Shown: piece by piece, positions 33,660-58,891 of the stretch
Position numbering within the stretch: position 1 is the stretch's first letter
How the letters are laid out: every line of letters starts with the position of its first letter
DNA from: Eledone cirrhosa
Taxonomy: Eukaryota
Length of the DNA: 64,000 nucleotides
Assembly: GCA_964016885.1 (NCBI GenBank)
Contig: OZ024747.1
Coordinates: 2,666,001 to 2,730,000, forward strand
Reading direction: 5' to 3'
Translations under genes and position numbers: made by a program
Notes under the pieces: model-generated
Told to the model about the DNA's origin: nothing
What the model saw: the letters and a program-made list of their open reading frames with translations, nothing else
Database searches by the model: none

Positions 33660-33859
33660 NNNNNNNNNNNNNNNNNNNNNNNNNNNNNNNNNNNNNNNNN
33701 NNNNNNNNNNNNNNNNNNNNNNNNNNNNNNNNNNNNNNNNNNNNNNNNNNNNNNNNNNNNNNNNNNNNNNNNNNNNNNNNNNNNNNNNNNNNNNNNNNNN
33801 NNNNNNNNNNNNNNNNNNNNNNNNNNNNNNNNNNNNNNNNNNNNNNNNNNNNNNNNNNN
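33660..33859. other. Assembly gap (200 N)
   Basis: Run of exactly 200 N, a typical fixed-size scaffolding gap. Confidence 1.
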
Positions 33860-33863
33860 TGTA

Positions 33864-34841: not shown

Positions 34842-37250
34842 ATGATGATAAAACTTTGTATAATATTATTTATTCTTGGAGAATCAATGTCTGTAGATGT
34901 TATCTTCATGTGTCAGAGGGTCATAGTCCAGGTACATTTATAGGGAGCATTGCAGATGAAACTCACTTCTGGACAGTATGCCTTCTCAAGAACATGGCTC
35001 TGTTACATTCAGCCAATTACATGAAAGTAGAAGTGAAGATTTTGAACTGTTTAATATAACAAACTCAGGAAAGATGTACACAACACAAGTTTTAGATGCA
35101 GAATCTCTTTGTAAATATAACACAGAATGTTTCAAGATGATAGAAATTGCAGTGAGGCACGAGGAATCTTTTGTCCGGATTTTGGAAATTAAAATAATTA
35201 TTGATGATATTAATGACAATGCTCCTGAATTCTCCAGCAAACAATCAAACTCCAATTTTCAGAAACTGACAGAGAAGGCTTTATGAAATCAATACCAAAT
35301 TCTGTAGACAAAGACGTTAGTACACTATATAACCAGATTAATTATCAGCTTTATAAGAACCCAGATGAACCTTTTTCCCTATCTGTTAATAAGAAAGTTG
35401 ATGGAACAGCTAAAATTGGTATCATGTTAGAAGAAGCTCTTGATAGAGAACTAAAAGATAGTTATTCCCTGCAGGTCATTGCTAGAGATGGTGGATCACC
35501 ACCAAAAGAAGGAATTTTAGATATACAAATATCGGTTACAGATGAAAATGATAATTCTCCAGCCTTTTCTCAGGATATATATAATGTCTCAATTAATAAC
35601 GGTTTTCGAAAAGATGTTCCAGTTTTTGTTTTGCATGCAACAGACCTAGACTCAGGAAAAAACGGGGAAATTTTATACCAATTTGGCTCAAAAACCTCTC
35701 CATTAGCAAAATCCCATTTTACAATAAATAAGAGAACTGGAGATATTTTCCAATCAAGAACACATTATGGTGAAAGGAAACAAATGTATAAGCTTTATAT
35801 TGAAGCTATCGATAATGGCAATCCTCCTTTAAGTTCAACTGCTATTGTTTTGATAAACATATTGAATGAAGAAAATAATGCTCCACGAATAGATATGAAA
35901 TTTGTATCAAAATTTGAAGGTAACAGAGTTACAATATCTGAAGGAGTAAAAGTTGGCAGTTTCATTGCCTATGTGAAAGTTATAGATAATGATGTTGGTT
36001 TAAATGGAGAGGTTTCCTGTCAACTTCAACATGATAAATTGGAACTCAGAAGTTTGGGAACAAACAAATATAAAGTAGTCATCAAGAACACAGTAAACAG
36101 AGAAAGTCAAAGTCAACTTAATTTTGCAGTTGAGTGTGAAGACAGAGGATTGCCTCCATTATTAACCAAAAGAATGTTTACTGTCCAAATAAAAGATGTC
36201 AATGACATACAGCCACACTTTACTCGTGAGGTTTTCAAATTTTTAACTTATGAAAATGAGAAACCAAATTTTCCAATTGGCCTAATTAATGCAACTGACC
36301 AAGACCAGGGATCTGGTGGTCAGCTTTCCTTCTCTTTGCTGAATGACCACGGTCATATTTTACCATTTAAAATATCCAATTTTGGGTTTATTGCAACAAC
36401 TCAAATGCTTGACCGAGAACAACAAGACATCTATAAATTTAAAGTTTTAGTGAAGGATAATGGCATTCCTCCATTAAGTAATACTGCCACTGTAATTGTT
36501 GAAGTTATGGATAAGAATGACAATGCCCCATATTTTACATTTCCAAGTGTTAGCCCTTTCACTTTAGACGTCCACTATCATCCACAGAGTAATAATGACA
36601 TCACAACATTGAGAGCTTCTGATAGAGACAGCCATGTTAATGCTTTCCTCAAATATGAAATACTTAGCGGAAATGGAAAACAATTATTTTCAATAAATCC
36701 TTACACTGGTACTTTGTCTTATTACCGAACAGTTTACCAAAATGATGCTGGATTATATGATCTTCAGTTTGTTGTCAAAGACAGTGGTACACCAGTTTTA
36801 TCAGCAACAACGACTCTGTCTTTGACATTGACTGTCAGTAACAATACATCTAAAATGTTTACAGCTGTAGGCACAGAAGCTGATAAAAAGATACATTTTA
36901 ATTTAGTTGCTGTTATAGTCATTGCGGCTGTCATTGTATCTGTTGCTATTGTGGTATCCATTGCAATATGTATCATTCAGAAAAACAACCAAAGAAAATT
37001 CCTCTATACTAATGATGTAGATGGGAATAATAAGTTCGTTGAAGAGAGGAGACCATCAGAATATGTCTCTGAAAGTGTTTCTCCTCAGTATGATATTTCT
37101 ATTACAATGGTATCTGACAACAGCATGAAAAGAAACACACAAACAGCTACACTTAAAAAAGAATCACTTCCCAGACATAAACCTGGACAAAATTGGAAAA
37201 ATTCCCCAACAGGAATATTACACCAAAATATTATCCAAGGGACGCATCAG
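34842..37250 (+). CDS. Protocadherin main coding exon (signal peptide, 6 EC repeats, TM, start of cytoplasmic tail), broken by three 1-nt deletions (assembly error or young pseudogene)
   Basis: ATG at 34842 gives MMIKLCIILFILGESMS-VDVIF. Joining frames at about 34905, 34967 and 35243 gives HVSEGHSPGTFIGSIA..LDAESLCKYNTEC..DINDNAPEF, then ORF 35283 with LDRE, DENDNSPAF, ATDLDSG, DVNDIQP and DKNDNAPYF cadherin motifs and TM FNLVAVIVIAAVIVSVAIVVSIAICII. Donor CAG|GTAAGT at 37250/37251 (phase 0). About 804 codons once repaired. Confidence 0.95.
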
Positions 37251-39896
37251 GTAAGTTTTTACATTTATAGTTTCTCTTACAAGTATGTTGTTACTTAATC
37301 AATATCAATGAGAAAAACTCTACTAAATCAGAACTTGGAATTAATAGAAATTTGGTTGAAATCCAACTTAAATACATAGCTTCAATACTAATACAATTTG
37401 TTCAGAAAGTGATTCCTATTTCTTGAAATATTCTCATGTCACCTGATATAAATACTTGAGTGTTCTGAGTTAGCCACTCTTACAGTCTCACATGATTTCT
37501 CTAGAAGAAAAACTATTCAAGGAAAACACTAAAATATAAAAAAAGAAGTTTGCCAGGAGAATACTAAGAATCTGTAATTGAATAGTTCCATGAGATGTGT
37601 TGGAGATCATTTTATATATTCTTCTAACCTAATATTTCTTTCAGTTATTCTAATTATCTTTATTCAATTTGTGTCATTAGATTATTTAACATCAGAAAAA
37701 ACTTTCAAGAATTTAATTATTTCATTTAAACTGAGTTAAAAAAAATTTGCAAAAGTATTTGAGAAAATTCTCAGTTCAGATTCAGAATACAAGGCCTGGT
37801 AATTGCAACATTGTACAAAGACAGACCATTGCAAAAGGATGTTAAGGTGTGATTGATAGTTTTCAACAAATTTATCATATCAATTGATAATAGAAAAAAA
37901 AAAAGCTACAGAGAGAATCAAGTTACAAGAAGCAATAGTAAAAAAAATAAGAAATAAATTTAATCAAATATCAGTAAAGATATAGAGGCTATAGTTAAGT
38001 GATAGTGACATTTGACAGAAGGGAAATGTGTCATGTTACTAAACAGTGCTGATATCATGTCTTTATCTGTCCATTAGTGTTGAAACTGGGCTTATTGATT
38101 GATTAATAAACATTCCTTGCTTCCTCCTGTTTTCACACATCCAAGTGTGTTTTACAATGTAACTCCTAATTAATTGATTCAGTCTTTCAGATAGAAGTCT
38201 AAACATTTGGATTATAGAATTACCAGCATTGTATTGAAACCTTGATTAACATCTTCTCTCCTACTGTGACTCTTAGAATGTAGTTGCTTGCTTTTTAATG
38301 CATTTTTACTTCTTTTATACATATTATCTGATTCACTATACAAAGAGGGACATGCCCTTGATTAGATACAATTGACAAGTAGATTTTCACAAACACACAT
38401 ACAAACATACATATACATATATAAATACACATACACATATACATACACATATACTAATCACAGTCACAGATACTCACACAAGTAACAAGTAGAAATAAAG
38501 TACAGTATCAGAATAAATGTTAAAGAGTTAATATCACAAATAATAATCAAGGAAAAATCTCATTGTCTGAAAGAGAAATGGAACTGCTGTGAGGGGAAAA
38601 ACTTAATAGCATGATTAATGTGAAAAAGAGATGGTATATGTCGAGAACGGTTTTATAGAGAATTGCATGGAGATAGAATAAACAGAACATATTTTGTAAT
38701 AACATCTGACTTCATGACTATTTTAGTGTTATCATTGAGTAAATTGAAATATAAGTAACTTCCTTTACATTTGTATTACTGGCTTAATATCAATGTATCT
38801 GAAATATTTCAGGACTATATAAATAGTATTAGTTGAAGTGAACAAAGAAAGATTATAAATATTTATGGAGGAAAATATACTTTTCTTTTTATTTACCTTC
38901 ATTTCAGCCTTCAAACTATCAAATGTAGGTTTTCATAACAGCATGGTTGTATCACTGTTTATAAATAAAGTATTTCATTTTCAAATGCCAGTGAAGATTT
39001 AGTGTAAGAATCTTAACATGATTGTGCCAATATTTAATACGATGAACTCACTATTTCTTTTAGAAATACCACTCAGGAATTGGTGTTAGATTATTTCCTG
39101 TGGACATCTAATGAGCAGACATTAACAGTAAGAAACTTCTTAGTAAATGAATCTAACAAGAATTTCACAATTCCTAATAACTATTTTATTATTTGTGTTA
39201 TATAAATCTAGAACATTTAAATCCCACACAGGGATTCAGGTAGTACACCAGACCAGGACCCAGAGAACCTAGGATGGGCCAGTGAATATCTAATAACTCC
39301 CATCCCAAAAAGAATATCTTTGGCCCTCCTGAGTTTTGAGATAAGCTGAATCTGCAGTAATGACACCTAAAACGGTTGTATTCCACCTTGCAAAGTTTCA
39401 CTTGGAGGCTCTTACTGGACATTGTAATAAGGCAAACAAGAACTGTTGTTTTATAAACTGGATTTAAAAGTACATAAATCACTAAGAACTCTGTGGGCTA
39501 ATAAATGTTGGTATTTAGCTCTAGACTTACCCTTTCAGAGCAGAACCACAAGGAAAACTTCCAAAATATTTGGCCTAGTCTCACATCTGGATGAATTAAT
39601 CCTTTTGATAACAACCTAACTGAAACTGGTCCTGGTTATGTGTAACAAATCCACCTATTTTAAATGCTTGCTATATATATATCAAGAATGGTGTACTCAT
39701 GTGTGAAGATGCTATAAAACAGCTTATAAAATTGAGTAAAGATCCTTAGAGATAGAAAAGAAGTTGCCATCAGCTGCTGAGAGGAACTGAACCCCATATT
39801 TCCCAGATACCAGCTAGGCACTTTAAACCATTAAGCTAAGGGACTTTGGCAACTCTTAAATTAGATTGCTGAATCACAGCTTTTAAATGTAAACAA

Positions 39897-40783: not shown

Positions 40784-41136
40784 TTAGGTAAGGCGGGTCT
40801 TCTCTGTTACTGAGTACCGCCAAAGGTCTCGGTCCAGTGACATTGTCTTGGAGAGGTGTAAGTGTGTGATGTCGGAGTTTATCAGCTCGTCCCAGGTTTT
40901 TCTAGGTCTGCCTATTCCGTGACTACCGTCTATCTTTATTGCCCTGCACTTTGTTATACAGCTATCGACTTTCATGCGCATCACGTGTCCATACCAACGT
41001 AGCCTTCTCTCGAGTAAACAACATCTGATCCCTCTTATCTCTAATTTTTTCCTTAGTTCGTTTATGCTTTGCCGTTCACGTATATTACTGTTACACATCC
41101 AGCGGAGCATGCAAGCTTCGTTCCTCTCTAGTCTGC

Positions 41137-41138
<2 letters not shown>
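40784..41138 (-). mobile_element. RTE-clade LINE 3' ORF fragment
   Basis: MLRWMC..RRLRWYGHVMRM..GRPRKTW C-terminal motifs. Related pieces at 7265-7520(-), 17578-17830(+), 41600-41900(-) and 42990-43290(+). Confidence 0.85.
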
Positions 41139-41176
<38 letters not shown>

Positions 41177-41404
41177 TGTATATATGTATATATATATATA
41201 TATATTTATTAAAATAACAGATTAAAGTTTAAGCAAAGAATCGGTGCTTTCACCCTTAACGGGATCTTCTGAAACTAAAAAAGTCAATCTGTGAACGCAG
41301 AAGTAAACATTTAAAAAAACGTTGCAACCGAAGGAAGACAGGAAGATGATACTTTGGTTCGTGGAAATGTTCCCTGGCAAAGAACGGAATATATATATAT
41401 ATAT

Positions 41405-42221: not shown

Positions 42222-43522
42222 ACACCACTCACATATACATATATTTCATTTAATATCTGTTTTCTTTGCTAGAAAGTAATAGATGTGTCATCCAAGTACT
42301 CCAAGTTTTAAAGAGACTAGAAAATACAAAGAAAATATTTTCTTCAAGTCTCTTTAATGAACAGAAAACTGATAAACAAAGTTAAATTTTACTTGTAAGC
42401 TTAAATCAAATCTGTTAGGCTGTATGCTCAAAAATGCATCTAAAAAGAAAATTATCAAAATTGTTTCATCACCAAAATGTAGCTTAATACTTTCATTAAT
42501 ATTCCAAGGACACACTGCAGCAATGATGAGTGAATACAAACAATTAGTCCTTTGGCAAGTAGACTTGAATCTTAACAACTCAACCTGCTGTGACTTTGTC
42601 AGATTATATGAAATATGGCAAAAAGATAGAAAATTTATGCAAGGATAAAAATAGGAAAGTTTTAAGTGTAAGACTGAAAGGAATTAAATTTTTTTATTTT
42701 TTGTTTTTTATATTTTTATTTTATGCAATCATAGACAAAATTTAATTACGATAAATCTATATTGTTTGGAGATTTTTTTAAGTTATCAAGATTAATAAAG
42801 TTCAAATCAGAGATGGAGATCAATAGGAAATTGAGAGTTGAAATACATTTAAAAAATAATTCTTATAATCCTTTATTAAATATTTCCTGACATGTTATCA
42901 AATTATTCAATAATGCACACATCTGAAATAGTCTTAATGTCCTTTATATAGATCCTTGTAAAATTCTTATGAACTGTAAAACAAACATGGATGAAGAAGT
43001 TCTAAGTAATCCTAGTGGAAGGAAGCTACAGTAGAGGAAGACCAAGAAAGAACTGAATGGGATTAGTGAGAGCTTATCTCAGGTTGTTATAGCTCACATA
43101 GGTGATGAATGAGTGAGCTAATATGTGCATATATATATATGTGTGTGTGTTTGTGTGTGTGGAAGGAAGCTACAGTAGAGGAAGACCAAAGAAGAACTGA
43201 ATGGAAGTGGCAAGATCCTCTACTGAGAAGGAGCCATCAAAGCCATGCAAGCATGGAACAATGAACATAAAATGATGATGATGATGTTGATTATTCAGAA
43301 GAACAGGATGTGCCAATGGTTTTTTTAGACCCTCAAATTTAGCTTCTATATCTAGCTGGTCAAGAGCTTCCTTGTTGAAATATAGCTAGAGAATGTGCTG
43401 CCTAGGGCAGCCCTGGTGGTTGTTCACTTTCCTCGGCTCCTCATATATTAAATATATACAACAAACCTAAAGGAACCACTTCAACAAAGGTTTTGTGTGG
43501 GGCAGACCACCCCCACCTCCCC

Positions 43523-43781
43523 CAGAGGCATAACTAGGGTATGGCAAGCATGGCATGTGCTATGGGCGTCACTTTAAGTGGAGGGAGGCACTTGGACTAA
43601 ATGTGCCTTCTATTAAAGTCAGATAAGCTATCATCGGAGAGGGAAAAAAGAAACTTCTTCAGATGCATGACTGTCTTCATGGTTATATAAATCATTTTGC
43701 CAATAGTTAATAATACAGTGTTGGGTAGGGGCACAATTTCACTGCTTGTTATAGGCACTATTTCCCCTAGTTATGTCTCTG
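43523..43781. mobile_element. hAT-like MITE
   Basis: 17-bp TIRs CAGAGGCATAACTAGGG and CCCTAGTTATGTCTCTG (1 mismatch); TSD not clear. Confidence 0.65.
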
Positions 43782-44729
43782 TTCTCCTTGCTATGTTAGT
43801 GCTCCTTGTTGAATTACTGTAGCATCTATAAGCTCATTTCCCTTTCTTTGATTCAATAATTTTCATCTTATTGAATTTGAACAAAACTTCTGCACATTAA
43901 ATGTTCTCTTTTGCTTAGTTCAAACATCTTTGCCATCTCTGTGTCTTCTCTGACAATCTAACTCTAACACTCAACTAGTCCATCAACATGGAAATGTGGA
44001 CAATTGTTAATGAATAGAGTGCTTCATCAGTGTAATATAGATTGTCCTCATGTGAATGCTAAACTCAGTAAGGTGGAAAACAAATCACAAACCAAAGCAG
44101 TGAAAATGTAATTGGACAGATATCAATTTCTGTAAGCTGAGACATTTGCCAATTCAACCCCTTGCTACAACAAAACACCCCATCCCCACACATACACACT
44201 CAAGCATATATATATATATGTATATACACACACACACACACACAATATGTGTATGTGTGTATATATACATAGCGGGTAAATTTGCACAGCTAGAGTGATG
44301 GATAAAAAGTGTTTTGATATATTTGTTCCAGCTCTTTGTACTCTGAGTTCAAATCCCACCAGATTCAACTTTACCTTTCATAGGGATCATAAAGAAATAC
44401 CAGGTCTGTGTTAGAGCAGCTTTTAGCCCTTCCAGCTGTCACATCTTTGATGTACTGCTGGGTAAAGTGTGTAGGTATCAAGATAATACATGGACACCTA
44501 GAAAGATTAATGAAAACATGGTACATGCTAATACCAAGTCATTCTTGATTACAGGTGATAGATGTATTATGAAGAAAAACGACAATCATGATGATGATTA
44601 GTGAATATATATATATATATATACGTGTGTGTATATATATATATACGTGTGTGTATATATATATGTAGCCATGGGAGGGGGATCAAGTAATGGGAATTCT
44701 CGAAATCGAAATGCAGCCATCATATATAT

Positions 44730-44776
<47 letters not shown>

Positions 44777-44783
44777 CATACAT

Positions 44784-44832
<49 letters not shown>

Positions 44833-44833
44833 T

Positions 44834-45150
44834 GGAGGCACATTGGCCTTGCAATCAAAAGGTTGTGAGTTCAATTCTCAGACCGGCTGATGTGTTGTTT
44901 CCTTGAGCAAGACACTTTATTTCACATTGCTCCAGTTTACTCACCTGTAGAAATGAGATGATAGGGACTGGGGTCCCTATCATTCCACTGCAAAGTGGTC
45001 GTGGAGGTGCCACGGCAATAAAGCACCCAGCACTCACTGTAAATGAGGTTGGTGTTAGGAAGGGCATCCAGCTGTAGAAATCAAGCCAGAATCAGTTCCC
45101 ATCCCACCCTTGCAAGCAGGGAAAAGCGGACGTAAAATGAACTGATGATG
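44834..45150 (+). mobile_element. Same SINE family, full length
   Basis: GGAGGCACAT head, B box, CCTTGAGCAAGACACTTT, (TGA)n tail. Confidence 0.88.
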
Positions 45151-45186
<36 letters not shown>

Positions 45187-45230
45187 GTATATATATATGT
45201 ATATATATATGTATATATACATATATATAT

Positions 45231-45284
<54 letters not shown>

Positions 45285-45352
45285 TCATCATTTCATTTAT
45301 ATATTATATATATACATATATAAGTTTATATATGTGTGTATGCAAGTACATA

Positions 45353-45414
<62 letters not shown>

Positions 45415-45545
45415 GATAAATCTACCAAGAGTTTACGGTAGTGTCCAATCCGTATGAAGAACTCAATGTATTCCGGATATCATGGAAAGAAGAGATGTAA
45501 TGAAAATCCAATTTCGGTGAAAGATAAACGGTATACAGAGTCAAG

Positions 45546-46521
45546 ATAAAATATTAAACAAATAATGAACAAACAATTCCTTATATTAAACAAAAAAAGT
45601 TCACTATTTAACGATCGTTTCTAGGGCATATATGTGCTATAATTGGTATGCATATTTAACAGATCTATGTACAAAATTATACAAAATTATACAAATTATC
45701 AAGATTAAATATACATACCTAACTCATATATACGCCGTCTTCAGAAATAATGAAGTATATTTATTGATAATAACAACAATTCAAAATATCAGTTCAAAAT
45801 TGACCAATGAAAACACAAAGGGTTAAAAAGCAGTTTGGTGTGTGTATATACATGTAAAACCCTACACACATTTTACAATAATGTGTGTATAATATGTATG
45901 TGCATACTAAAAAGATGGATGCAAATAAAAAATTTCAAGGTTAATATCTCTGTAAGCTTAATGCGCTGATAAGATACGCAATGATACTTATGTAGTCAAG
46001 CATATAAATATATTTTTTTCATACTCACACATATCAGTATAATCACACATACATGTGCGTATATATATAAATATACACATAACCACGAACACACAAACAC
46101 ACACACACCCCCCACTCACATTTATATATGTGGATATAAAATCATAAGCAAATAGAAATTAAGTCACTCACATAAACACACTGGTACACACATTTCAAGA
46201 TCAAGATACAGAAATTAGGTGGGAGGGGGGGGGAGGGGTCAGTATTAGGTTGTCAGACCAGACAGCCTAATATAAATGTATCTATAAATTATGAAAAATA
46301 AAAAAATAAGAACAATAAAATATATTACATAATATAATGTACATACGCATACAGATATACATACACATACGTACATGTACGCGCACATAGAGATATCTAC
46401 ACATACATACATACACACATACCTATACTGTCCTACACACACATACATTTACACGAACATACACATACACATATAAAAAGATAAAAATACGGACACACAC
46501 ACGCGCAACACATACACACAT

Positions 46522-46566
<45 letters not shown>

Positions 46567-46673
46567 TATACACACACACACATAGACTCATATATATATA
46601 CATACACATACATATACTTATACATAAACATATATATCCCACACTCATACCACCATGAAAACACATACAAACA
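45546..46673 (-). repeat. Left arm of 1128-bp inverted repeat
   Basis: Reverse complement of 50012-51139. All mirrored landmarks sum to 96685 (e.g. identical ORFs 45632-45826 and 50859-51053; 46245-46448 and 50237-50440). Confidence 0.97.
45600..45754 (-). ncRNA. Mirror copy of the type I hammerhead ribozyme
   Basis: Reverse complement of 50931-51085 in the left arm. Confidence 0.8.
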
Positions 46674-46727
46674 ACTTCTACTAAAAATACTGAAAACATA
46701 CAGCATAATATTACCAACAAACACCAA

Positions 46728-47699
46728 ATGAAAGGTACACACCTAAATGCCACCCACAGTATACCCCAAAATACTAAATCTTCTAATATAAAGTATAGTA
46801 ACCCTCAAAAAACTACTCATCATAAGACTATAATAAATATTAATAATAAAACTCCTAATAAAAAAGATAAAACACCTAAATCTACAAATATAACTAAAAA
46901 TAGTTGTGGTGAGATCATTAACATTATTCCTCCTAGTAAAAATCATGATACAACATATAAAAATAATAAAAATAATAAACAACATAGAAACCGTAATAGA
47001 CGAGTTACTTGGTATAATGCTCCTTTTAATTTACAAGTTAAGGATAATATTGCTAAAAAATTTTTTTATATCCTTGAGAAAAACTTCCCGCCAAACCACA
47101 AATACCATCAAATCTTAAATAGGTCTACAGTTAAATTCTCATATTCTACAACAAATAACATAAAACAAAATATAAGTGCATATAATGCATATAAATGTAA
47201 GAAAACTATAAGTATACCACCAGTACATCAAATTAACAATAATATCTCCTCAAATACAGAATTAACGAAAGGATGTAACTGTAGAAACAAAACAAACTGC
47301 CCATTAAAAGGGAATTGTCTTGTTAACAACATAGTCTATAAATGTAATGTTAAAACTAAAGATTCTATTTGCTCATATATAGGAGCTACCTCTAACAATT
47401 TTAAGACAAGGTATAATACCCACAAACATAGCTTTAAAAATGCCGCACTGGCTAATACAACATCTCTAGCAGAAAAAATCAATAGTTATAAAAATAAAAA
47501 TATAAAATATGATTTGACCTGGAGTGTGCTCAAAAGAGCCACCCCTTATCAAAATAATAGAAAGGAATGTAGATTATGTTCCCAAGAACTATTTGAAATA
47601 ATGAAGTCTAGTGATATCTTATTAAATAAAAGACAGGAATTAATTATATCGTGTAATCATAAACTAAAAAAAACATTTAAATATTATAAACCTAATTAA
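46728..47699 (+). CDS. GIY-YIG endonuclease region of a Penelope-like element
   Basis: 323-aa ORF with [72 protein letters not shown] and SCNH. The frame is open back to the arm junction at 46674. No YxDD RT core. Confidence 0.9.
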
Positions 47700-49522
47700 T
47701 AACATTATTCTAGAATTTAATTTAATTTAAATGTTAGTTAACCTATAAATTTAATTTAATTAATATTTTATTACAGATGAGAAAATATTATGTAATCATT
47801 AATTTTGAAAAACCTTTAAATATTACTAATATATATTCAGTAATTTAATTTATAGATTAATTTTAACTTATTTTAACCTTTTATTATAATTTTTTAATTT
47901 AGTTTAACCTTTTATTATAAAATTTTTTTTATTATAATTCTTTTACAGATAAAATATAACAAAATAATATCATGTATCCTATGACGGAGAAAGAATTTTT
48001 AGTATTATTGACCTAATTAATATACATTTTGGAAATATATTTATTATTTGGTTTTAGCTTTAATCAACCTAAAACTTTAATTTTAATTTTAATTTGCTTA
48101 AAATTAGTATCCTTGTACAGACGAATTGCAGAATTTCATGTAATCATAGAATGGGAGGTGTTTTTGGATATATACCTAGTTAATATATTCTGTGCAAATT
48201 TTTTGGAAAAGATATGTATATCTATATGTATATGTATATGTGTGTATTGTATGTGTATCTGTATGTATATTTATGTGACTATATATGTATGTACGTGTGT
48301 ATATATATGTATATATATATATATATATATGTGTATGTATATGTATATGTATGTGTATGTGTATGTATATGTATGTGTATGCGTATTAATTTTGATTTTT
48401 ATTTGCATATAATTATATTATGCTATTGATGAAATACAATATCTGCTTTATGTATTGTATACCTAATTAACATATACTAATTAACATATACTATTGAAAT
48501 AAATATATAATTTTTAACTTAGTTTACATATAATTTATATGCTACTACCGATGTAATACTTTATTTTATTTTTATTTGGGTTTCTTTTCCCTATTATTAA
48601 CTTTAATTTAGTTATAATGTAATTAATAATCTACTACTGTTTGACTTCATAATTCTGCTTCAAATATTATAAACCTAACTAATTTACACCTTGGAAATCA
48701 ATATGTTGACTATCTTTGGTTTAGTTGACATATGATTAATGGTATACTTTTTTATTTTGTGATGCATAGATTTCGTATTTCCTAGCATTGAAAATATGTA
48801 AGAACATACATTGAATTAAGATTTGGAAAATATTATAGGTTTCTTGAAACATATATTTACTTTGATCCCCTTCTCCAAACCCCCCCCTTTCCCCCATACT
48901 ATTATCATCTGTTTTTGTAAGTGTATATGTATGAATATATGGGTAGATGGGTGTCTATATAGTTTTTTTTTTTTGGTATTTATTTCTAGATATAAAAATA
49001 CATATATGAGCATGTAAATATGAATGTAAGATTGAGTGTGTATATATGATTGTACATACATATGTATGTATATGTATGTATATATATGTATTATATATGT
49101 ACGTGTATGTGAATGTGTGGTATATATATGTGTAGGTATATGTATATATGTGTGCGTATGTGTATGCTTGTATATAGGAATATATATGTGTGTATATATG
49201 TATATATGTATATGCGTGTTTGCATGTATGTGTATATGGGTTCTGTATATATTTGTATGTCTCTCTATTTATATGTTTATCTTCGTATCTATGTGATATA
49301 TGTGTGTGTGTGTGCATGTATGCATATGTATGTGTTTGTGTGTGTTTGTATGTGTGTATGTATGTATATGTATGTATTTGCGCACACTCACATACACATA
49401 TATATATATATATATATATATATGTGAGTGTGTATGTGTGTCTGTATGTGTGTGCGTGTGTATATATGTGTATATATATGTATATATATGTGTATGTATG
49501 TGTATGTGTGTGTATATAGATA

Positions 49523-49561
<39 letters not shown>

Positions 49562-49700
49562 ATATAGGTGTCTATGTGTGAATATATGTCTTTATTCGTA
49601 TGTGTGTATTTATATATGTTTATATTTAGGTGTATGTATGTATGTGTATGTATGTATGTATATGTATGTGTATGTATGTATATGTGTATATGTGTGTATA

Positions 49701-49737
<37 letters not shown>

Positions 49738-49958
49738 CTTTATTATTATTGTAATATAACTTATGTGTATATGTGTATAAGTGAGGTTGTGTATGTATAT
49801 ATACTATGTGTATATATAAGGGTAATGAAATGTATATATATATATATATATATATATATGTGCATGTCTGTATTTTATGTGTGTGTGTATATATATATAT
49901 ATATGTGTATGTGTGTATATGTGTATGTATATATGCATATATGTGTACGTGTGTGTAT

Positions 49959-50008
<50 letters not shown>

Positions 50009-50011
50009 GGA

Positions 50012-50118
50012 TGTTTGTATGTGTTTTCATGGTGGTATGAGTGTGGGATATATATGTTTATGTATAAGTATATGTATGTGTATGTATATATATATGAGTC
50101 TATGTGTGTGTGTGTATA

Positions 50119-50163
<45 letters not shown>

Positions 50164-51136
50164 ATGTGTGTATGTGTTGCGCGTGTGTGTGTCCGTATTT
50201 TTATCTTTTTATATGTGTATGTGTATGTTCGTGTAAATGTATGTGTGTGTAGGACAGTATAGGTATGTGTGTATGTATGTATGTGTAGATATCTCTATGT
50301 GCGCGTACATGTACGTATGTGTATGTATATCTGTATGCGTATGTACATTATATTATGTAATATATTTTATTGTTCTTATTTTTTTATTTTTCATAATTTA
50401 TAGATACATTTATATTAGGCTGTCTGGTCTGACAACCTAATACTGACCCCTCCCCCCCCCTCCCACCTAATTTCTGTATCTTGATCTTGAAATGTGTGTA
50501 CCAGTGTGTTTATGTGAGTGACTTAATTTCTATTTGCTTATGATTTTATATCCACATATATAAATGTGAGTGGGGGGTGTGTGTGTGTTTGTGTGTTCGT
50601 GGTTATGTGTATATTTATATATATACGCACATGTATGTGTGATTATACTGATATGTGTGAGTATGAAAAAAATATATTTATATGCTTGACTACATAAGTA
50701 TCATTGCGTATCTTATCAGCGCATTAAGCTTACAGAGATATTAACCTTGAAATTTTTTATTTGCATCCATCTTTTTAGTATGCACATACATATTATACAC
50801 ACATTATTGTAAAATGTGTGTAGGGTTTTACATGTATATACACACACCAAACTGCTTTTTAACCCTTTGTGTTTTCATTGGTCAATTTTGAACTGATATT
50901 TTGAATTGTTGTTATTATCAATAAATATACTTCATTATTTCTGAAGACGGCGTATATATGAGTTAGGTATGTATATTTAATCTTGATAATTTGTATAATT
51001 TTGTATAATTTTGTACATAGATCTGTTAAATATGCATACCAATTATAGCACATATATGCCCTAGAAACGATCGTTAAATAGTGAACTTTTTTTGTTTAAT
51101 ATAAGGAATTGTTTGTTCATTATTTGTTTAATATTT

Positions 51137-51139
<3 letters not shown>
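50012..51139 (+). repeat. Right arm of 1128-bp inverted repeat
   Basis: Reverse complement of 45546-46673; ends directly in (TA)n. Confidence 0.97.
50931..51085 (+). ncRNA. Type I hammerhead ribozyme with extended stem II
   Basis: Stem I TTCATTATTT/AAATAGTGAA; CTGAAGA at 50941-50947; stem II GGCGTATAT/ATATATGCC plus GGTATGTATATTTAA/TTAAATATGCATACC; GAAAC-GATC-GTT with predicted cleavage after 51075. Confidence 0.8.
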
Positions 51140-51167
<28 letters not shown>

Positions 51168-51436
51168 TAATATATATGTTGTATATGATATATATACGTA
51201 TATGTGTATGTGCTTTGTGTGTATCTATGTGTTTGTGTGTGGACGTGTAATTAGTGTATGAATATTATTGTTAGTGTTATTCTGCTTTCATCTATATTTT
51301 GCTAGTGAGCTTAAGAAGGAATTCTGATTCATTCTACAGAACTCATAATAATCTGGTCATGCTTGTGCTATGAATCAACTGTCCATTCTGTAATCAGAGA
51401 AAATGAGACCACATTTAATGTACACATATATATATT

Positions 51437-52047
51437 GATAAACATATACATACTGTCATGATAAACACATACATACTGTCATGATAAACACATACATACT
51501 GTCATGATAAACACATACATACTGTCATGATATACACATACATACTGCCATGATAAACACATACATACTGTCATGATAAACACATACATACTGTCATGAT
51601 AAACACATACATACTGTCATGATAAACACATACATACTGTCATTATATACACATACATACTGTCATGATAAACACATACATACTGTCATGATATACACAT
51701 ACATACTGTCATGATAAACACATACATACTGTCATGATATACACATACATACTGTCATGATAAACACATACATACTGTCATGATAAACACATACATACTG
51801 TCATGATAAACACATACATACTGTCATGATAAACACATACATACTGTCATGATATACACATACATACTGTCATGATAAACACATACATACTGTCATGATA
51901 AACACATACATACTGTCATTATATACACATACATACTGTCATGATAAACACATACATACTGTCATGATAAACACATACATACTGTCATGATAAACACATA
52001 CATACTGTCATTATATACACATACATACTGTCATGATAAACACATAC
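51437..52047. repeat. 23-bp minisatellite, about 26 copies
   Basis: Unit TACTGTCATGATAAACACATACA with variants GATATAC and TTATATAC. Confidence 0.95.
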
Positions 52048-52880
52048 CATACACTTACACATATACATGTATACATACCCATATGCTACAGTTTACATAT
52101 ACACACAAAAATCTATACCTCCATCAATAAGTGCAATAATTTATGAGTTAATATTTTTCCTTCCATTTGACTTCAATTATATCAAAAATACACTTGAGAA
52201 ATGTATGAATGTCACATAATCTCAATATTTTCCCCCTAAAAATGTGTAGTTTACTGTTTTCCTAAGAGATCAATACATCACTTCTGTTTGTACAAAGTCA
52301 ATAAAGCAGACTTTGCATGCAAATGGTTACATATTATATTGCCAAATCTAAGCACTAAACTACATCAGCTCTTTGATAATTTACAGTTGTGAGTTTGATT
52401 CCTGCCAAGATCATCTTAGTGTTTAAGCCCCAACAGTTAATGTAATAAATACTTAGTTAGCCAATAAAAGATTACAGCTGAGCTGGTGTGTTGAGATAAT
52501 AAACCCTACAAACATTCAAAGTCTGGCTTCTGTTGGTCAATAACTACTGGCTAATAACTTGATAATGATAAAAATGAGGGTGTAGGTGAGATTAATTAGT
52601 GTATTTTAGTTTCTGTTATGGACAGATTGAACACATTTACATCTAGATGAGACTTTTGATATCAAATTTAGAATAATAATATCATTCCTATTCCCTTTAA
52701 CATCATCCTTTTTCTCCCCTAAACTTTATCACTCATTATTCCCATAAACATTATGATCCTTACTTTCCTACACATTATCAATCTGACATCTCTAACTACA
52801 GAAAGTAATGATATGAAAATTAGTTTAGCTGATTGAATAGTTTATCAGCATGGTCATACACCAAACAAGATGTCATAAAA

Positions 52881-52932
<52 letters not shown>

Positions 52933-53930
52933 CTCTCACTATTATAAGCAAATGCGTGCCTATGTGTTGGCCACCCCCAATCCATTTAAAGAGGAGAAAG
53001 AATTCCTTGTGCAACAGTGTAACATTGACTCATATTATAATTGTGTTTCTATACTTGTGGTCTAATGGATTAAGGTACCATGCACTCAGAATAAATATAC
53101 ATATGTAGTCATTCACCAGAAGAAGATATTTACATATGAAGAAGACTGATGATGTTACTGGAAGAACATATACATGATTGAGTTAGACTAACATGTGACA
53201 AGAAATTTGAATAATTCCAATCTATTTCCTAATATTCTTCGTATTGTAGTGTATTCATGTTTTTAACTTTACAAATACTTCTATTTTTATTGAAAGACTT
53301 TTGGAAGATATTAGAGTTTAGCATCACCTGCTATGTCTTTCAAGAACAGATATAAGTTCATAATTTGGTTTCTAATATGAATACTGAAGATTATCCAAAA
53401 TAACTTCTCACTACACCTGGGATGGGCAACTGTTTTCGACTAGTCGACCACATAGGATGTGTCTCATCATATGGTGGGCCTCACTATGAAAAATTTCAAG
53501 GCAATTTTGATTAGGCATGCCATTGAGAAAGCCAAACAGGGTGCATGCAGCTCACGACCCACAGTTGTTCATGACTACACTAAACACACGTGGGTTAAGC
53601 AGCATCTTATACAATGGAAAGTGTTGTAGAAATTATGTTCTGTTGGGATTTATCTATTTCATAAAAATATATTGAGTATTTGGTTAAAAAATGGTCTTCT
53701 TTAAATATAAAAGGCATATTTGCATCAAGGTATCTTTTAACTGCTGTAAATTATATATATAATATGACAAATATAAAATATTATATATATGTCATATTGT
53801 CTATATATATATACAATATGTCAAATTCATTCTTTTATTTCTCCGTCCATTTCAATACAGTTACAATGGTATAATGGTATAAACAACATACATAGAGCTT
53901 CTTTCACCTTACCAAAGATAATAGTGAAGT

Positions 53931-54178
<248 letters not shown>

Positions 54179-54436: not shown

Positions 54437-55618
54437 CACATTTATTTTAAATTTATCAGTTCATATAATTAAATCAACAAAGTATATATTTATTTTATTA
54501 CACAAGCTTATCAAAAGCAAACAAATTGTAGAACTCGGTAGACTCAAACACCTTCTTTATCTGAGGTCCAACAAAAATTCCACCTTTGATTTTGGCCTCA
54601 GATAACTTGGGGAAGAACTCAAGAAGGGACTTAAAAGGGGCTGATTCTTGGTTGAGAGCCTTCACAAACTGCTTCATCAACCCCGACTTAATGTACAGTG
54701 GCAGCATGAGCACAATCCTGGGATCAACCAGTGGCTCCCACATGACGTTCCGGGTCCCAACTACAAATTCTATTCGCTGCTCCCAGTTCTTTCTTTTGTA
54801 GTGGTCAGAGGTGGCTCTGCTGTCCCAAAGGCAGAGGAAGCTTTGGAATTTGATAAAGCCTCCTTGGAGTCCAAGCAGGAAAGCCACCATCTTGAAGTCT
54901 CCAATGATTTCCCAATTGTACTAGTTGTATTGCAGAGCTTCCAAGGGGACTTTCACACTGTAGTAATCTTCCTTCAGGCAGACTGAATGAGCTAGGGGCA
55001 GTGTCGGGAACTTGTTTCCATTGTGGAGGAGGACAGCATTCAAACTTGTGGTGGAGCTGTTTATAAATAGCTGCCACTCCTTGGGCACAAACGGCATCCG
55101 AATAATGTCAAACAGTCCAGGTATGTCATGGCAGAAGCAAAGGCCATCCCTAAGAATGTAAAAGCCTGAGAAAGGTTTGTGTCAACTTCTCTGACTTGTC
55201 ACCTGCACTTCCTCCTTGATCAAGTTCCACTTCTTCATCCTGGAGACGAATGCTTAAAACACAACTTACCCTTTATTCAGGGTGCGAAAATCCAGTATCA
55301 ATAAATCTCTTTAATCCACTTTTTAACAATTTTATACTTTATTGCACTTTTATAATTTTCTTTAGGTATTACTCTTTATTTTATAATTTTAATTTAACCT
55401 GAAACATATAAAAAAAATCATTTAACATAAGCAAATTAAACTTACATACAATGTAAAATCCAGCATAAAAATATTCTAGTGAATAGCTTAGAATTTTTAC
55501 AAACCCAAACTTTTAACTGTTTAATAGCAATTTTTTTTATTTATTTGGGACCTAAGCAACACAAAAAAAGTGATTACAAGCCAGGAACAGAGAAAAAAAA
55601 TGTTTTTGTTACACGGTA
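54430..55618 (-). mobile_element. Decayed DNA transposon, Chapaev3-like (CMC superfamily)
   Basis: EWQLFINSS..AVLLHNGNKFPTLPLAHSV..IIGDFKMVAFLLGLQGG..FLCLWDSRA..PLYIKSGLMKQFVKAL..FPKLSEAKIKGGIFVGPQI with an internal stop; terminus-like (T)ACCGTGTAACAAAAA at about 55618. Family assignment from memory. Confidence 0.75.
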
Positions 55619-55720
55619 TAATTTAATAATATTCAATAGGATTCATATATTTATTAATTAAACTTTATATTAACAAATCACCCAAATAAAAATAAATAAA
55701 TAGTAGTGTGTTGTCTTAAG

Positions 55721-56350
55721 TATGAGTGTAATCTCAACTTGGAGTGTAATCTCCGACTTGAAGATTACATTCCAAGTCGGAGATTACACTTCGAGTCGGA
55801 GATTTTGCAGATTACACTCCAAGTTGGAGATTACACTCCAAGTCGGAGATTACAATCAAAGTTGCAGATTACACTCCAAGCTGCAGACAAGTTGCAGATT
55901 ACAATCCTTGTTGCAGACAAGTTGCAGATTACACTCCAAGTCGCAGATTACACTCCAAACTGCAGATTACACTCCAAGTCGGAGATTACGCTTCAAGTCG
56001 GAGATTACACTCCAAGTCGGAGATTACACTCCAAGTCGGAGATTACACTCCAAGTCGGAGATTACACTCCGACTTGGAGTGTAATCTGCAAAATCTCCGA
56101 CTTGGAGTATAATCTCAAGCTTGGAGTGTAATCTCCAACTTGGATTGTTGTAATCTCAACAAGTCGGATATTACAACAATCAGAGTCGGAAATTTCACTC
56201 CAAGTCGGAGATTACACTCGAAGTCTGAGATTTCACTCCAAGTCGGAGATCCCACTCCAAATTGGAGATTACATTCCAAATCGGAGATTACACTCCAAGT
56301 CGGAGATTATACTCCAAGCTGGAGATTACACTTGGAGATTACACTCCAAG
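55721..56350. repeat. 19-bp satellite in blocks of alternating orientation
   Basis: Unit CCAAGTCGGAGATTACACT; approximate blocks: reverse 55721-55760, forward 55760-56070, reverse 56070-56160, forward 56160-56350. Confidence 0.92.
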
Positions 56351-58891
56351 TTCTTGAATTCCCTAAAGACAAAACAAAAAATAAGTTTCTATATAAATGT
56401 CACATATAGAATGTCAAGTTTTATATGTAAATCTCTATTTACTTGTTTCAACTATCGTTTCATGTCTAACAGACAACATCTGAACAGTTTTACTAAGTAA
56501 TATCTCACCTTCCAGCAGGGAAGAAAATAATGCTCATAAAATAAATGTTTTTCAGAAAGTTTACATAAATATATCTATTAATAATTCATTTATAATGAAG
56601 CTACCTACCTCAATATTACTAGAAAGAAATTGCCAATGTAAAAATGTGTAATTTCTCTTCTAAGTTATGCAATATTTAAATATGACAGAAAGAGCTTTTA
56701 TTTAGAAATAAGCTATGTTTCATTTAGAATAAATACATTCTGTAAACTCCATTTTGTATGTTAGCTTCCAGACTTTGGAAGGGATTATAGTTGAAAAATT
56801 GATTGATTTTCACACATCTCACTTCCTTAATGTTACCAATGTGCAGCAGATATTTTATGACATTTAGAATTAATGTTTTAATATTTTTTTTATCCTTGAT
56901 GCTTAAAAATGACTGCTGGTTTGAATGTGTTAGAATATTGATATTATTGTTATTATCATTATTGTTATTTTTTATTTCCCACATTAGACAAGATCAACCT
57001 CAAACCTGTCATGCTGAATGCTAACACAAGAGTCAGGAACTGAGGAAATTAGTCATTGATTTAGGAGTATGGCATTTTGGTTTTCACTCACTAATTAACA
57101 ACTAACAGATGAGCACAATAATGTTACTGCCGGAAACACTAAAATAGAGCCTATTTCCTCTGACTTCAACATTTTATTGACTAAGATGTCAAGCCACCAT
57201 CACCATCTCTACTGTGGCTGAAACATATTTGAAAGGAAGTTCATAATATCATTAATATTCTCTATCTTACAGTTCATTGTTCACTTGATAAAAAGATTTC
57301 TGTATGAAATTTGGCTTTAGTAGTATTTTTTTTAAAATTATATTTTGTCACCAATTTCACAAAGAATTTTTCCTAACCTATTTTGTCATCAAAATTTATA
57401 GTGTAATTAGTTACAATAGGAAGAGTAAAATAAAAATCCCAGAAAGGTATGCTTCACAGTTTTACTCTTTTTCTTGTTTCAATCATTGAACTGTGGTCAT
57501 GCTGGAGCATCATCTCGAAGAGTTTTAGTTAATTATATCAACCCCAGTATTTATTTCAGCTGTTTTATCGATCTCTATTTATTGAAAAGACCAGTTACAT
57601 TTTCTGTTTTGTTATTTTTTGACATAAAAGGATGTAAGTTGACAGATGAATTGACATGTAGAACTCAACATGGTTGCTTAGCTTACTGGAATATGTAAAT
57701 ATAAACAGTGACACACATACATGAACATATATATACACATACACGCACACATATATATAGATATGTATACATATATATATATCATCATCTATATATATGT
57801 GTGTGTGCATGTGTGTGTATATATATATATAATAAGGATTTAGATCAATATATGATGATTACAATCTCATTGCTTATAACTTGCTTAACAAAATGAATCT
57901 GAGCAGACACTAAACATTAAAATGTTGTGAAACAACAGTGCTCAAGTAACAGATCTTTGTGGTAGAGCAAAGACAAATCAATGATTCAACAGCAATAGAG
58001 AAACATTAAATCACTTCTATGATATCATTTCAGACTTTTGAGAAAACCTGTTAATTATTGATTGATTATAAACCAATAATCCACAAATTCTGGACTGTAG
58101 TCCTCATTAGCAAGTGAGACCTAAATAGAAATCCCCAAAATATCGACCATACTAGTAGAATTTCAAGTTGATACTAGCATTCCATGTTAGAATTAAGATA
58201 ACTGCTTCCCTATAGTTTCAACCTAGTAAAATCTACTCATCCACTCATAATGTTTTAGTTCAGTCAAAGCTACAATAGAAGCCCACGGTTATACTCCTCA
58301 AATATAATAACAGTATTGAAGACTTTCATTATGTAGTGCTACAAGCAAGAATATATTGAAATTGTTCTCCCTTCTGACTACATTAGCACCATGAGAGGAT
58401 TTTAGCCGAGTATTAGAGACAATATGATAGAGTCAGTCAATAACATTTGCTACTAACTACTTCCAAGTCCATTGAATAGGTTGCTTGAATTTGCCAGGAT
58501 TATAACTATTACCCTTTGCTTGGCTGGCTGACATTCAACTCAGCCTATATACGCTACCAAAGGAGATGATCCATATTATCTTAACAATATATTCTTACCA
58601 AATATTTTGGTATGTATCCATTCGACCCTGTAAGGTGGTCATGCTGGTGAAACAACTCCCCTGACGAAAAACCGAGCATTCTTCCAATAATTTAAAATGG
58701 CTGGATTGGATTCTTTCGTTTTTGAAACCATGGTTGGAGGACATTTATATGAGTGAGTGTTTCTTATTATAGTCTGTCTGACTTACACGCCCCTAAATTA
58801 GATAGAGATTTTTGTGGCATAAGTTTAATATATATATTATATGTAGCTTCACCCGGGTGAACCTACACTAATTCCGTGTTACACTCCCTGA

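Follow-up and report, generated by a model that had tools for sequence, protein, structure and literature searches.

An inverted, 5'-truncated copy of a young Hydra-clade Penelope-like element in Eledone cirrhosa: probable priming of both arms on one RNA

The 64,000-nt stretch of the Eledone cirrhosa genome analysed here (assembly GCA_964016885.1, contig OZ024747.1, positions 2,666,001 to 2,730,000 of the forward strand; "the window") carries a two-armed insertion of a Penelope-like element (PLE) at 45412–51139. We read it as a 5'-truncated head-to-head copy of a young, high-copy PLE family of the Hydra clade, whose arms probably arose in one event in which both strands of the (TA)n target were primed on the same RNA. 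Nearly every two-armed copy in the family has exactly one tailed end, which suggests that a single RNA was likely the simultaneous template of both arms. Taken alone, the locus is an ordinary truncated copy, and the family is more informative than the locus.

Architecture of the insertion

The features of the insertion, in window positions, are as follows (RT stands for reverse transcriptase, ORF for open reading frame and UTR for untranslated region).

45347–45411, no strand: left (TA)n target flank, read in sequence; a target-site duplication is unreadable within the repeat
45412–45545, minus: 134-nt tail, the outer 3' end of the family, ending in a short palindrome; left arm only
45546–46673, minus: left arm, an inverted 5'-truncated copy of the end of the 3' UTR, identical to 50012–51139
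45600–45754, minus: left-arm copy of the type I hammerhead-like motif, with a predicted cut 3' of 45610
46674, no strand: head-to-head junction, a single base matching neither arm; unique in the genome
46675–47699, plus: 3' remnant of an 813-amino-acid ORF (residues 474–813), cut just after the RT thumb
46675–47003, plus: N/K/T-rich linker, predicted to be disordered
47274–47660, plus: intact CxCx5C linker motif and putative nuclease of GIY-YIG type (VY...YIG, R, H, E, N; CxxC; CxH)
47700–51139, plus: 3.4-kb 3' UTR, element sequence rather than host DNA
50012–51139, plus: right arm, the last 1128 nt of the long copy, stopping at the tail-less site
50931–51085, plus: type I hammerhead-like motif, right-arm copy; predicted cut after 51075
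51140–51160, no strand: right (TA)n target flank, read in sequence

The left and right arms match at every one of 1128 nt, even through microsatellites, with no mismatch or indel. This bears out a preliminary description of the locus, made from the letters alone, as a pair of inverted arms without net indel; among the inverted pairs listed for the window, those that rank next are microsatellite noise at 70–74%. The same description gave one arm a 135-bp tail. The tail is indeed confined to one arm, but it is 134 nt long, and the 135th base can be assigned to element or flank alike. The (TA)n flanks reported there are present on both sides. Within the arms, a strong short hairpin adjoins a C-rich run (46236–46275 and 50410–50449).

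The frame 46659–47699 is stop-free and encodes 341 amino acids counted from the junction, or 323 counted from the ATG at 46728. The open frame of GIY-YIG type and its Cys/His motifs are as first described; the ATG that had defined a 323-residue product is not a start, however, but an internal methionine of the full ORF. The remnant differs from the full-length copy L031 by 9 nt and 6 amino acids. The window copy has lost its RT by truncation, so it would be dead as an autonomous element.

Pairing of tailed and tail-less ends

The ends of family copies were paired in two samples. Sample 1 comprised 71 loci, 48 of them with both ends; 5 were dropped because an end was out of range, masked or continuing in tandem. 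Exactly one tail was found in 41 of the 43 resolved insertions. Sample 2 was drawn independently of the nuclease, from the full list of 186 ends in the first 99.3 Mb of C1, with outward-facing neighbours within 16 kb taken as pairs. There, 49 of 50 end pairs are mixed (one tailed, one tail-less) and none is tail/tail. The sole two-tail case of sample 1, L059, has arms as different as unrelated copies and looks like a composite.

The arms of one insertion differ by 0.6 positions per 500 nt and are identical in 26 of 37 cases; between loci the figure is 9.1 per 500 nt, and 0.7% of 2553 pairs are identical. The inner ends also coincide more often than expected by chance: they lie within 10 nt of each other in 5 of 18 pairs (permutation mean 0.44; none of 100,000 permutations reached 5). 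At most arm–arm junctions a few bases overlap or are inserted; the window locus has a single extra base. Of the 41 mixed pairs, 19 carry the tail on the short arm and 22 on the long arm. In the first group, to whose pattern the window locus conforms, neither arm is contained in the other, and neither can therefore have served as the other's template.

These counts bear on a reading in which two ribonucleoprotein complexes, or two repeats of a tandem transcript, supply the arms, with identity provided by one highly expressed donor per cell or by gene conversion. Multimeric transcripts are plausible because tandem arrays are common (299 exact tandem junctions in the genome), and closely spaced inverted repeats can undergo gene conversion. 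Independent priming, however, predicts that about half of the insertions are tail/tail or tail-less/tail-less, and we observed 2 of 43 and 1 of 50; nor does it predict shared inner ends. We regard this origin as quite improbable.

How the two arms may form

We propose that the nuclease would nick both strands of the (TA)n target. From one 3'-OH, reverse transcription would start at the tail end; the second 3'-OH would prime at an inner site 134 nt upstream on the same uncleaved RNA. Both cDNAs would head for the 5' end of the RNA, stop early and join at their 3' ends, after which host repair would fill in. Given that the family belongs to the Hydra clade, we consider this twin-priming account of the locus likely. 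On balance, though with less assurance, we also favour its extension to PLEs in general: inverted repeats may form through twin priming that is coupled and uses two fixed sites of a single uncleaved RNA, giving a near-strict one-tail rule and run-off fold-backs.

The fold-backs may be represented by a class of short insertions. At the 5' edge of ribozyme stem I, two arms meet in around 830 junctions (a nearly self-complementary pattern matches 827 times forward and 830 times in reverse). Those that we sampled (e.g., L119, L125, L129, L131, L132, L142 and L144) are fold-backs of about 550 bp with inverted arms of about 205 bp and one tail. They resemble miniature inverted-repeat transposable elements (MITEs), yet derive from a retroelement. 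The stem I edge could mark the start of the transcript; if the model holds, cDNAs running off the transcript end at the 5' edge of the ribozyme would have produced hundreds of these ribozyme-bearing, MITE-like fold-backs of about 550 bp.

The proposal has precedents in other retroelements. In vitro, a Poseidon element cuts and extends both target strands; two start sites bound the tail, uncleaved RNA serves as the template, and a dimer is predicted (PMC11167929). This element, from Anolis carolinensis, shares with the mechanism proposed here two tail-delimiting RT start sites, extension of both strands, an AT-rich target and an uncleaved RNA template. It belongs to another clade, and its ribozyme and start sites overlap the start of the ORF (PMC11167929), whereas here they lie upstream of the ORF.

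LINE-1 twin priming offers a second parallel, in which the second target strand primes off the RNA already used by the first, yielding an inverted segment. The second LINE-1 primer anneals upstream of the first cDNA, and the segments barely overlap. Priming of the second strand on one RNA, with an inverted segment as the outcome, would be common to both systems. Unlike in LINE-1, two fixed sites 134 nt apart would be used here, and the arms duplicate each other.

Fold-back self-priming is the main alternative to twin priming. In this scheme, which has been proposed for rotifer Penelope elements (PMC3846280), a cDNA folds over and serves as its own template, or self-priming occurs on an antisense RNA. 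It accounts for the identical arms, the coincident inner ends and the near-perfect palindromes at the ribozyme edge, and with an antisense template it would also cover insertions with the tail on the short arm. From a sense template, however, it cannot yield a tailed short arm together with a long arm that holds upstream sequence, as seen in 19 of the 41 pairs, at the window locus and at, e.g., L136, L137, L145 and L148. Self-priming would have to invoke an antisense template or some further mechanism, and by itself it leaves the fixed stop 134 nt short of the tail end unexplained. We consider it unlikely, if the least so of the alternatives. The rotifer families resemble the one studied here in their inverted pseudo-long terminal repeats (pLTRs), one-end tail and Asn-rich insert between RT and nuclease, and differ from it in their low copy number and in the self-priming explanation given for them (PMC3846280).

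A fold-back artefact of assembly, or a read chimera, would suit arms that are 100% identical through microsatellites. A chimera would, however, mirror both ends and their flanks; here the tail sets the ends apart at two sites fixed across the family, and the left flank is unlike the right. In raw short reads from other samples, the tail-less end at 45546 is represented (109 reads in X21), as are ends at 45751, the 5' edge of the ribozyme (118 in X20, 87 in X22). Joints between opposite strands at 45751/45752 occur in small numbers (in X21, 3 reads with 3 starts; in X22, 2 reads). An artefact is therefore very improbable.

Several observations weigh against a single twin-primed event. All the support for the mechanism is genomic pattern, and samples 1 and 2 have a few loci in common. 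An insertion need not have two arms: among 38 loci selected by their tail, two-arm status is readable in 27, of which 9 are simply truncated and lack an inverted arm and 18 bear an inverted arm without a tail. In sample 2, 51 tailed and 35 tail-less ends (86 of 186) have no listed partner, the exact patterns used being liable to miss variants. Two tail-less/tail-less pairs occur, L108/109 in sample 1 and one at 42.67 Mb of C1 in sample 2. Two transcripts from a single donor, two repeats of a tandem transcript or later gene conversion could likewise make arms identical. In the Poseidon work no difference in start site between the strands was seen, and coupling of the strands, like the pairing of a tailed with a tail-less end, is outside its scope (PMC11167929). 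Finally, no read spanning 46673/46674 was seen, the restriction-site-associated (RAD-seq) reads and contigs not covering the junction, which counts neither for nor against the proposal, and the right flank has a single match in the assembly, with no second haplotype or empty site.

Parent family

We searched the genome with the nuclease region and scored 150 of 75,441 candidates. All 150 are near-identical at the protein level and stop-free in the matched stretch (frames of 264–927 codons), and 39 of them have the full-length, 830-codon frame. The proposal of a young, 5'-truncated inverted insertion is upheld, and the family it comes from has many intact copies. Exact-match counts in the genome give at least 4409 tailed ends, 3528 tail-less ends and 222 start-codon contexts in addition to the tandem junctions; for the tail-less ends, a pattern covering one subfamily gave 499 and the widened pattern 3528. 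The family is young, with thousands of copies in the E. cirrhosa genome, of which the window locus is one shortened head-to-head copy. Tandem and inverted pLTR structures with a one-sided tail are both present.

The parent unit, as seen in copy L031, which is in tandem with an upstream copy, is 6070 bp long and consists of a 155-nt leader, the 813-amino-acid ORF and a 3473-nt 3' UTR. About 35% of the 3' UTR, measured in the reference copy, is made up of alternating purine–pyrimidine runs. RT and nuclease are encoded in one frame, with RT motifs at residues 251 and 344 and the nuclease at 673–801. The linker between them is 119 residues long, versus 21–32 in 26 of 29 homologues measured. A model of the full ORF built from 41 aligned proteins (mean predicted local distance difference test score, pLDDT, 83.6) has TERT as its best structural match (Foldseek E value 1.9e-9; VIA Z 16.6, root-mean-square deviation 6.2, 310 residues aligned). 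Fold searches with this model are taken up by the RT part, and a single-sequence model of the nuclease domain reaches a pLDDT of 42. Pfam and PDB sequence searches gave no usable match for the remnant or the full ORF; the Pfam GIY-YIG model matches weakly in 6 of 41 aligned members (best E value 0.0037) and does not match the window protein. The best database relatives are 32–48% identical. The catalytic-type residues of the nuclease are kept in 40–41 of 41 aligned proteins and agree with the published Hydra nuclease.

In a set of 61 single loci, 11 arms run the full length, and no two of the remaining 50 stop at the same position. Comparison of 5' junctions across the genome, suggested beforehand as a check on truncation, thus gave both of the outcomes expected for it: variable junctions and RT-bearing copies. 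Nuclease regions differ by 0.3% on average over the 71 loci; these were chosen as best matches, so the value describes the youngest wave. Older copies at 84–95% identity are also present. At such low divergence open remnant frames are expected, and an open frame is the expected look of a young truncation.

These data bear on the other possibility raised in the preliminary description, a nuclease-only fold-back element moving as a unit. The frame open up to the junction and its in-frame ATG would suit such a unit. Against it, the junction 46673/46674 has one match in the 3.0-Gb genome and so is not repeated at other loci, the ATG is internal to the full ORF, open frames are expected at 0.3% divergence, and all 50 truncated, nuclease-bearing arms have different 5' ends. 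For this assembly we rejected the candidate, to which we assign a negligible probability.

Some copies have larger arrangements. Arrays of at least three units about 6.1–6.4 kb apart, with inversions, lie at 170.42–170.45 Mb of C2, 330.78–330.80 Mb of C3 and 221.19–221.21 Mb of C4, possibly through rolling or re-priming synthesis. At 186886665–186902725 of C3, a head-to-head pair with equal 479-codon frames occurs twice, 9778 bp apart, either because the whole insertion was duplicated or through duplication in the assembly. L062, L067, L096/097, L106/107 and L110/111 are near-perfect palindromes centred in the ORF, their arms measuring about 4.5–5.5 kb; such palindromes are likely to be unstable and hard to assemble.

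Assignment to the Hydra clade

The Hydra clade is defined by a C-terminal nuclease, RWK, DKT, CxCx5C, CxxC and CxH motifs, absence of CCHH, canonical hammerheads and (TA)n targets (PMC8557442). In the present family the nuclease is C-terminal to the RT. RWR stands at residue 37 (RWK in most homologues shown) and SDKT at 114. The three cysteines of CxCx5C (C673/675/681) are present in 41 of 41 aligned proteins. CxxC and CxH surround the catalytic E and N (C771/774 and C799 in 40 of 41, H801 in 41 of 41). Two cysteines between VY and YIG, at 696 and 705, sit off the canonical CCHH spacing and are unconserved, position 696 being Ala in 34 of 41 proteins. A predicted type I hammerhead lies near the 3' end, and insertion is into (TA)n. 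The telomerase-like RT in the ORF of the nuclease, expected of an endonuclease-bearing PLE, is found at the level of the family. One descriptive trait departs from the clade: Hydra elements are generally under 3 kb, and the excess in the 6070-bp unit is UTR and linker.

The Cys/His pattern had at first been likened to that of Naiad elements. Naiads have an N-terminal nuclease and no canonical hammerheads (PMC8557442). The present family lacks the Naiad traits of N-terminal nuclease, DKA, CCHH and absence of a canonical hammerhead, and CxCx5C, CxxC and CxH are a Hydra signature. It does share with Naiads the (TA)n target, inverted and tandem copies, a one-sided tail and presence in octopus (PMC8557442). 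Judged from motifs and domain order, with the references compared by eye, this is almost certainly a new family of the known Hydra clade.

Hydra-1_Obim of Octopus bimaculoides (2507 bp) is given in the supplement of PMC8557442; an octopus Hydra family is already published, so Hydra in octopus is known. With the clade, including Hydra-1_Obim, the family shares a single ORF with RT ahead of a GIY-YIG-type nuclease (putative here), RWK-like, DKT, CxCx5C, CxxC and CxH motifs, a type I hammerhead near the 3' end (predicted here) and a (TA)n target, and by eye it agrees motif by motif with the published Hydra alignment blocks. For Penelope-13_HM, another member, an inverted 5'-truncated copy is noted, as here (PMC8557442). 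The protein is visibly diverged from Hydra-1_Obim, again by eye. The listed Hydra consensuses are 1080–3045 bp long, and the microsatellite-rich 3' UTR of 3.5 kb and the 119-residue linker are unlike the Hydra references. The 134-nt tail compares with 30–40 bp given for PLEs, and the 155-nt hammerhead, with its long stem II, with listed motif sizes of 80–100 nt (PMC8557442).

The hammerhead-like motif

A ribozyme had been reported in each arm, and a hammerhead-like fold is present in both, though a search of 43000–54000 against Rfam gave no ribozyme; its 95 weak matches are all to miRNA or snoRNA models on microsatellite. The motif has the canonical core letters and a GUU cut site, with a stem I of 10 bp, a long stem II and a palindromic stem III of 3 bp. 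Its fold has a z score of −4.9, and none of 200 shuffles was as stable. There is one core motif per unit, and the predicted self-cleaving motif is 155 nt long. Of 51 variants found, 27 were chosen; in these, 98.2% of 1161 cells are paired, versus 29–53% in slid controls. Changes are mostly to wobble pairs, with one pair altered on both sides; the variant copies are close kin, and so covariation is thin. The extra bases in the core resemble PLE variants listed in PMC8557442. As a candidate for the insertion end, the hammerhead cut site was rejected: the ends lie 64 and 198 nt downstream of it, and the inner-end hotspot about 141 nt upstream.

Implications

Inverted 5'-truncated copies and a one-end tail are described PLE traits (PMC8557442, PMC3846280, PMC2377424), and the formation of tandem and inverted repeats and tails has been named as still needing an in vitro system (PMC8557442). 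A retrozyme preprint (10.64898/2026.07.22.740005), in its first part, treats tandem rather than head-to-head derivatives, and the portions of PMC9977147 and PMC13282606 consulted added nothing on mechanism. In the open literature, subscription papers and the supplements of PMC11167929 lying outside the search, we found no end-pairing count or twin-priming proposal for PLEs. For a mechanism that is poorly understood, the family offers an extensive natural record, useful for testing how Penelope inversions form. Its abundant tailed ends, exact start-codon contexts and many intact ORFs permit end-pairing counts that separate models, and it offers a Hydra-clade protein to test. It also carries a warning for annotation: the protein escapes Pfam and the ribozyme Rfam, and annotators would class the short fold-backs as DNA-transposon MITEs.

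Surroundings of the insertion

Just right of the insertion, 51390–52100 is a tandem repeat of about 30 copies of a 23-bp unit, and a minisatellite at 55700–56500 has open frames in three phases. Apparent decayed transposon fragments, with no Pfam match, lie at 54498–54920 and 40784–41221, both on the minus strand. The repeat landscape, together with a single-exon cadherin array close by, suggests a cephalopod host. A run of N is located at about 33660–33860. To its right, a single 689-codon frame at 35229–37298 (plus strand) encodes five cadherin domains (Pfam E value 3.5e-66) and is protocadherin-like; it stops about 8 kb short of the insertion.

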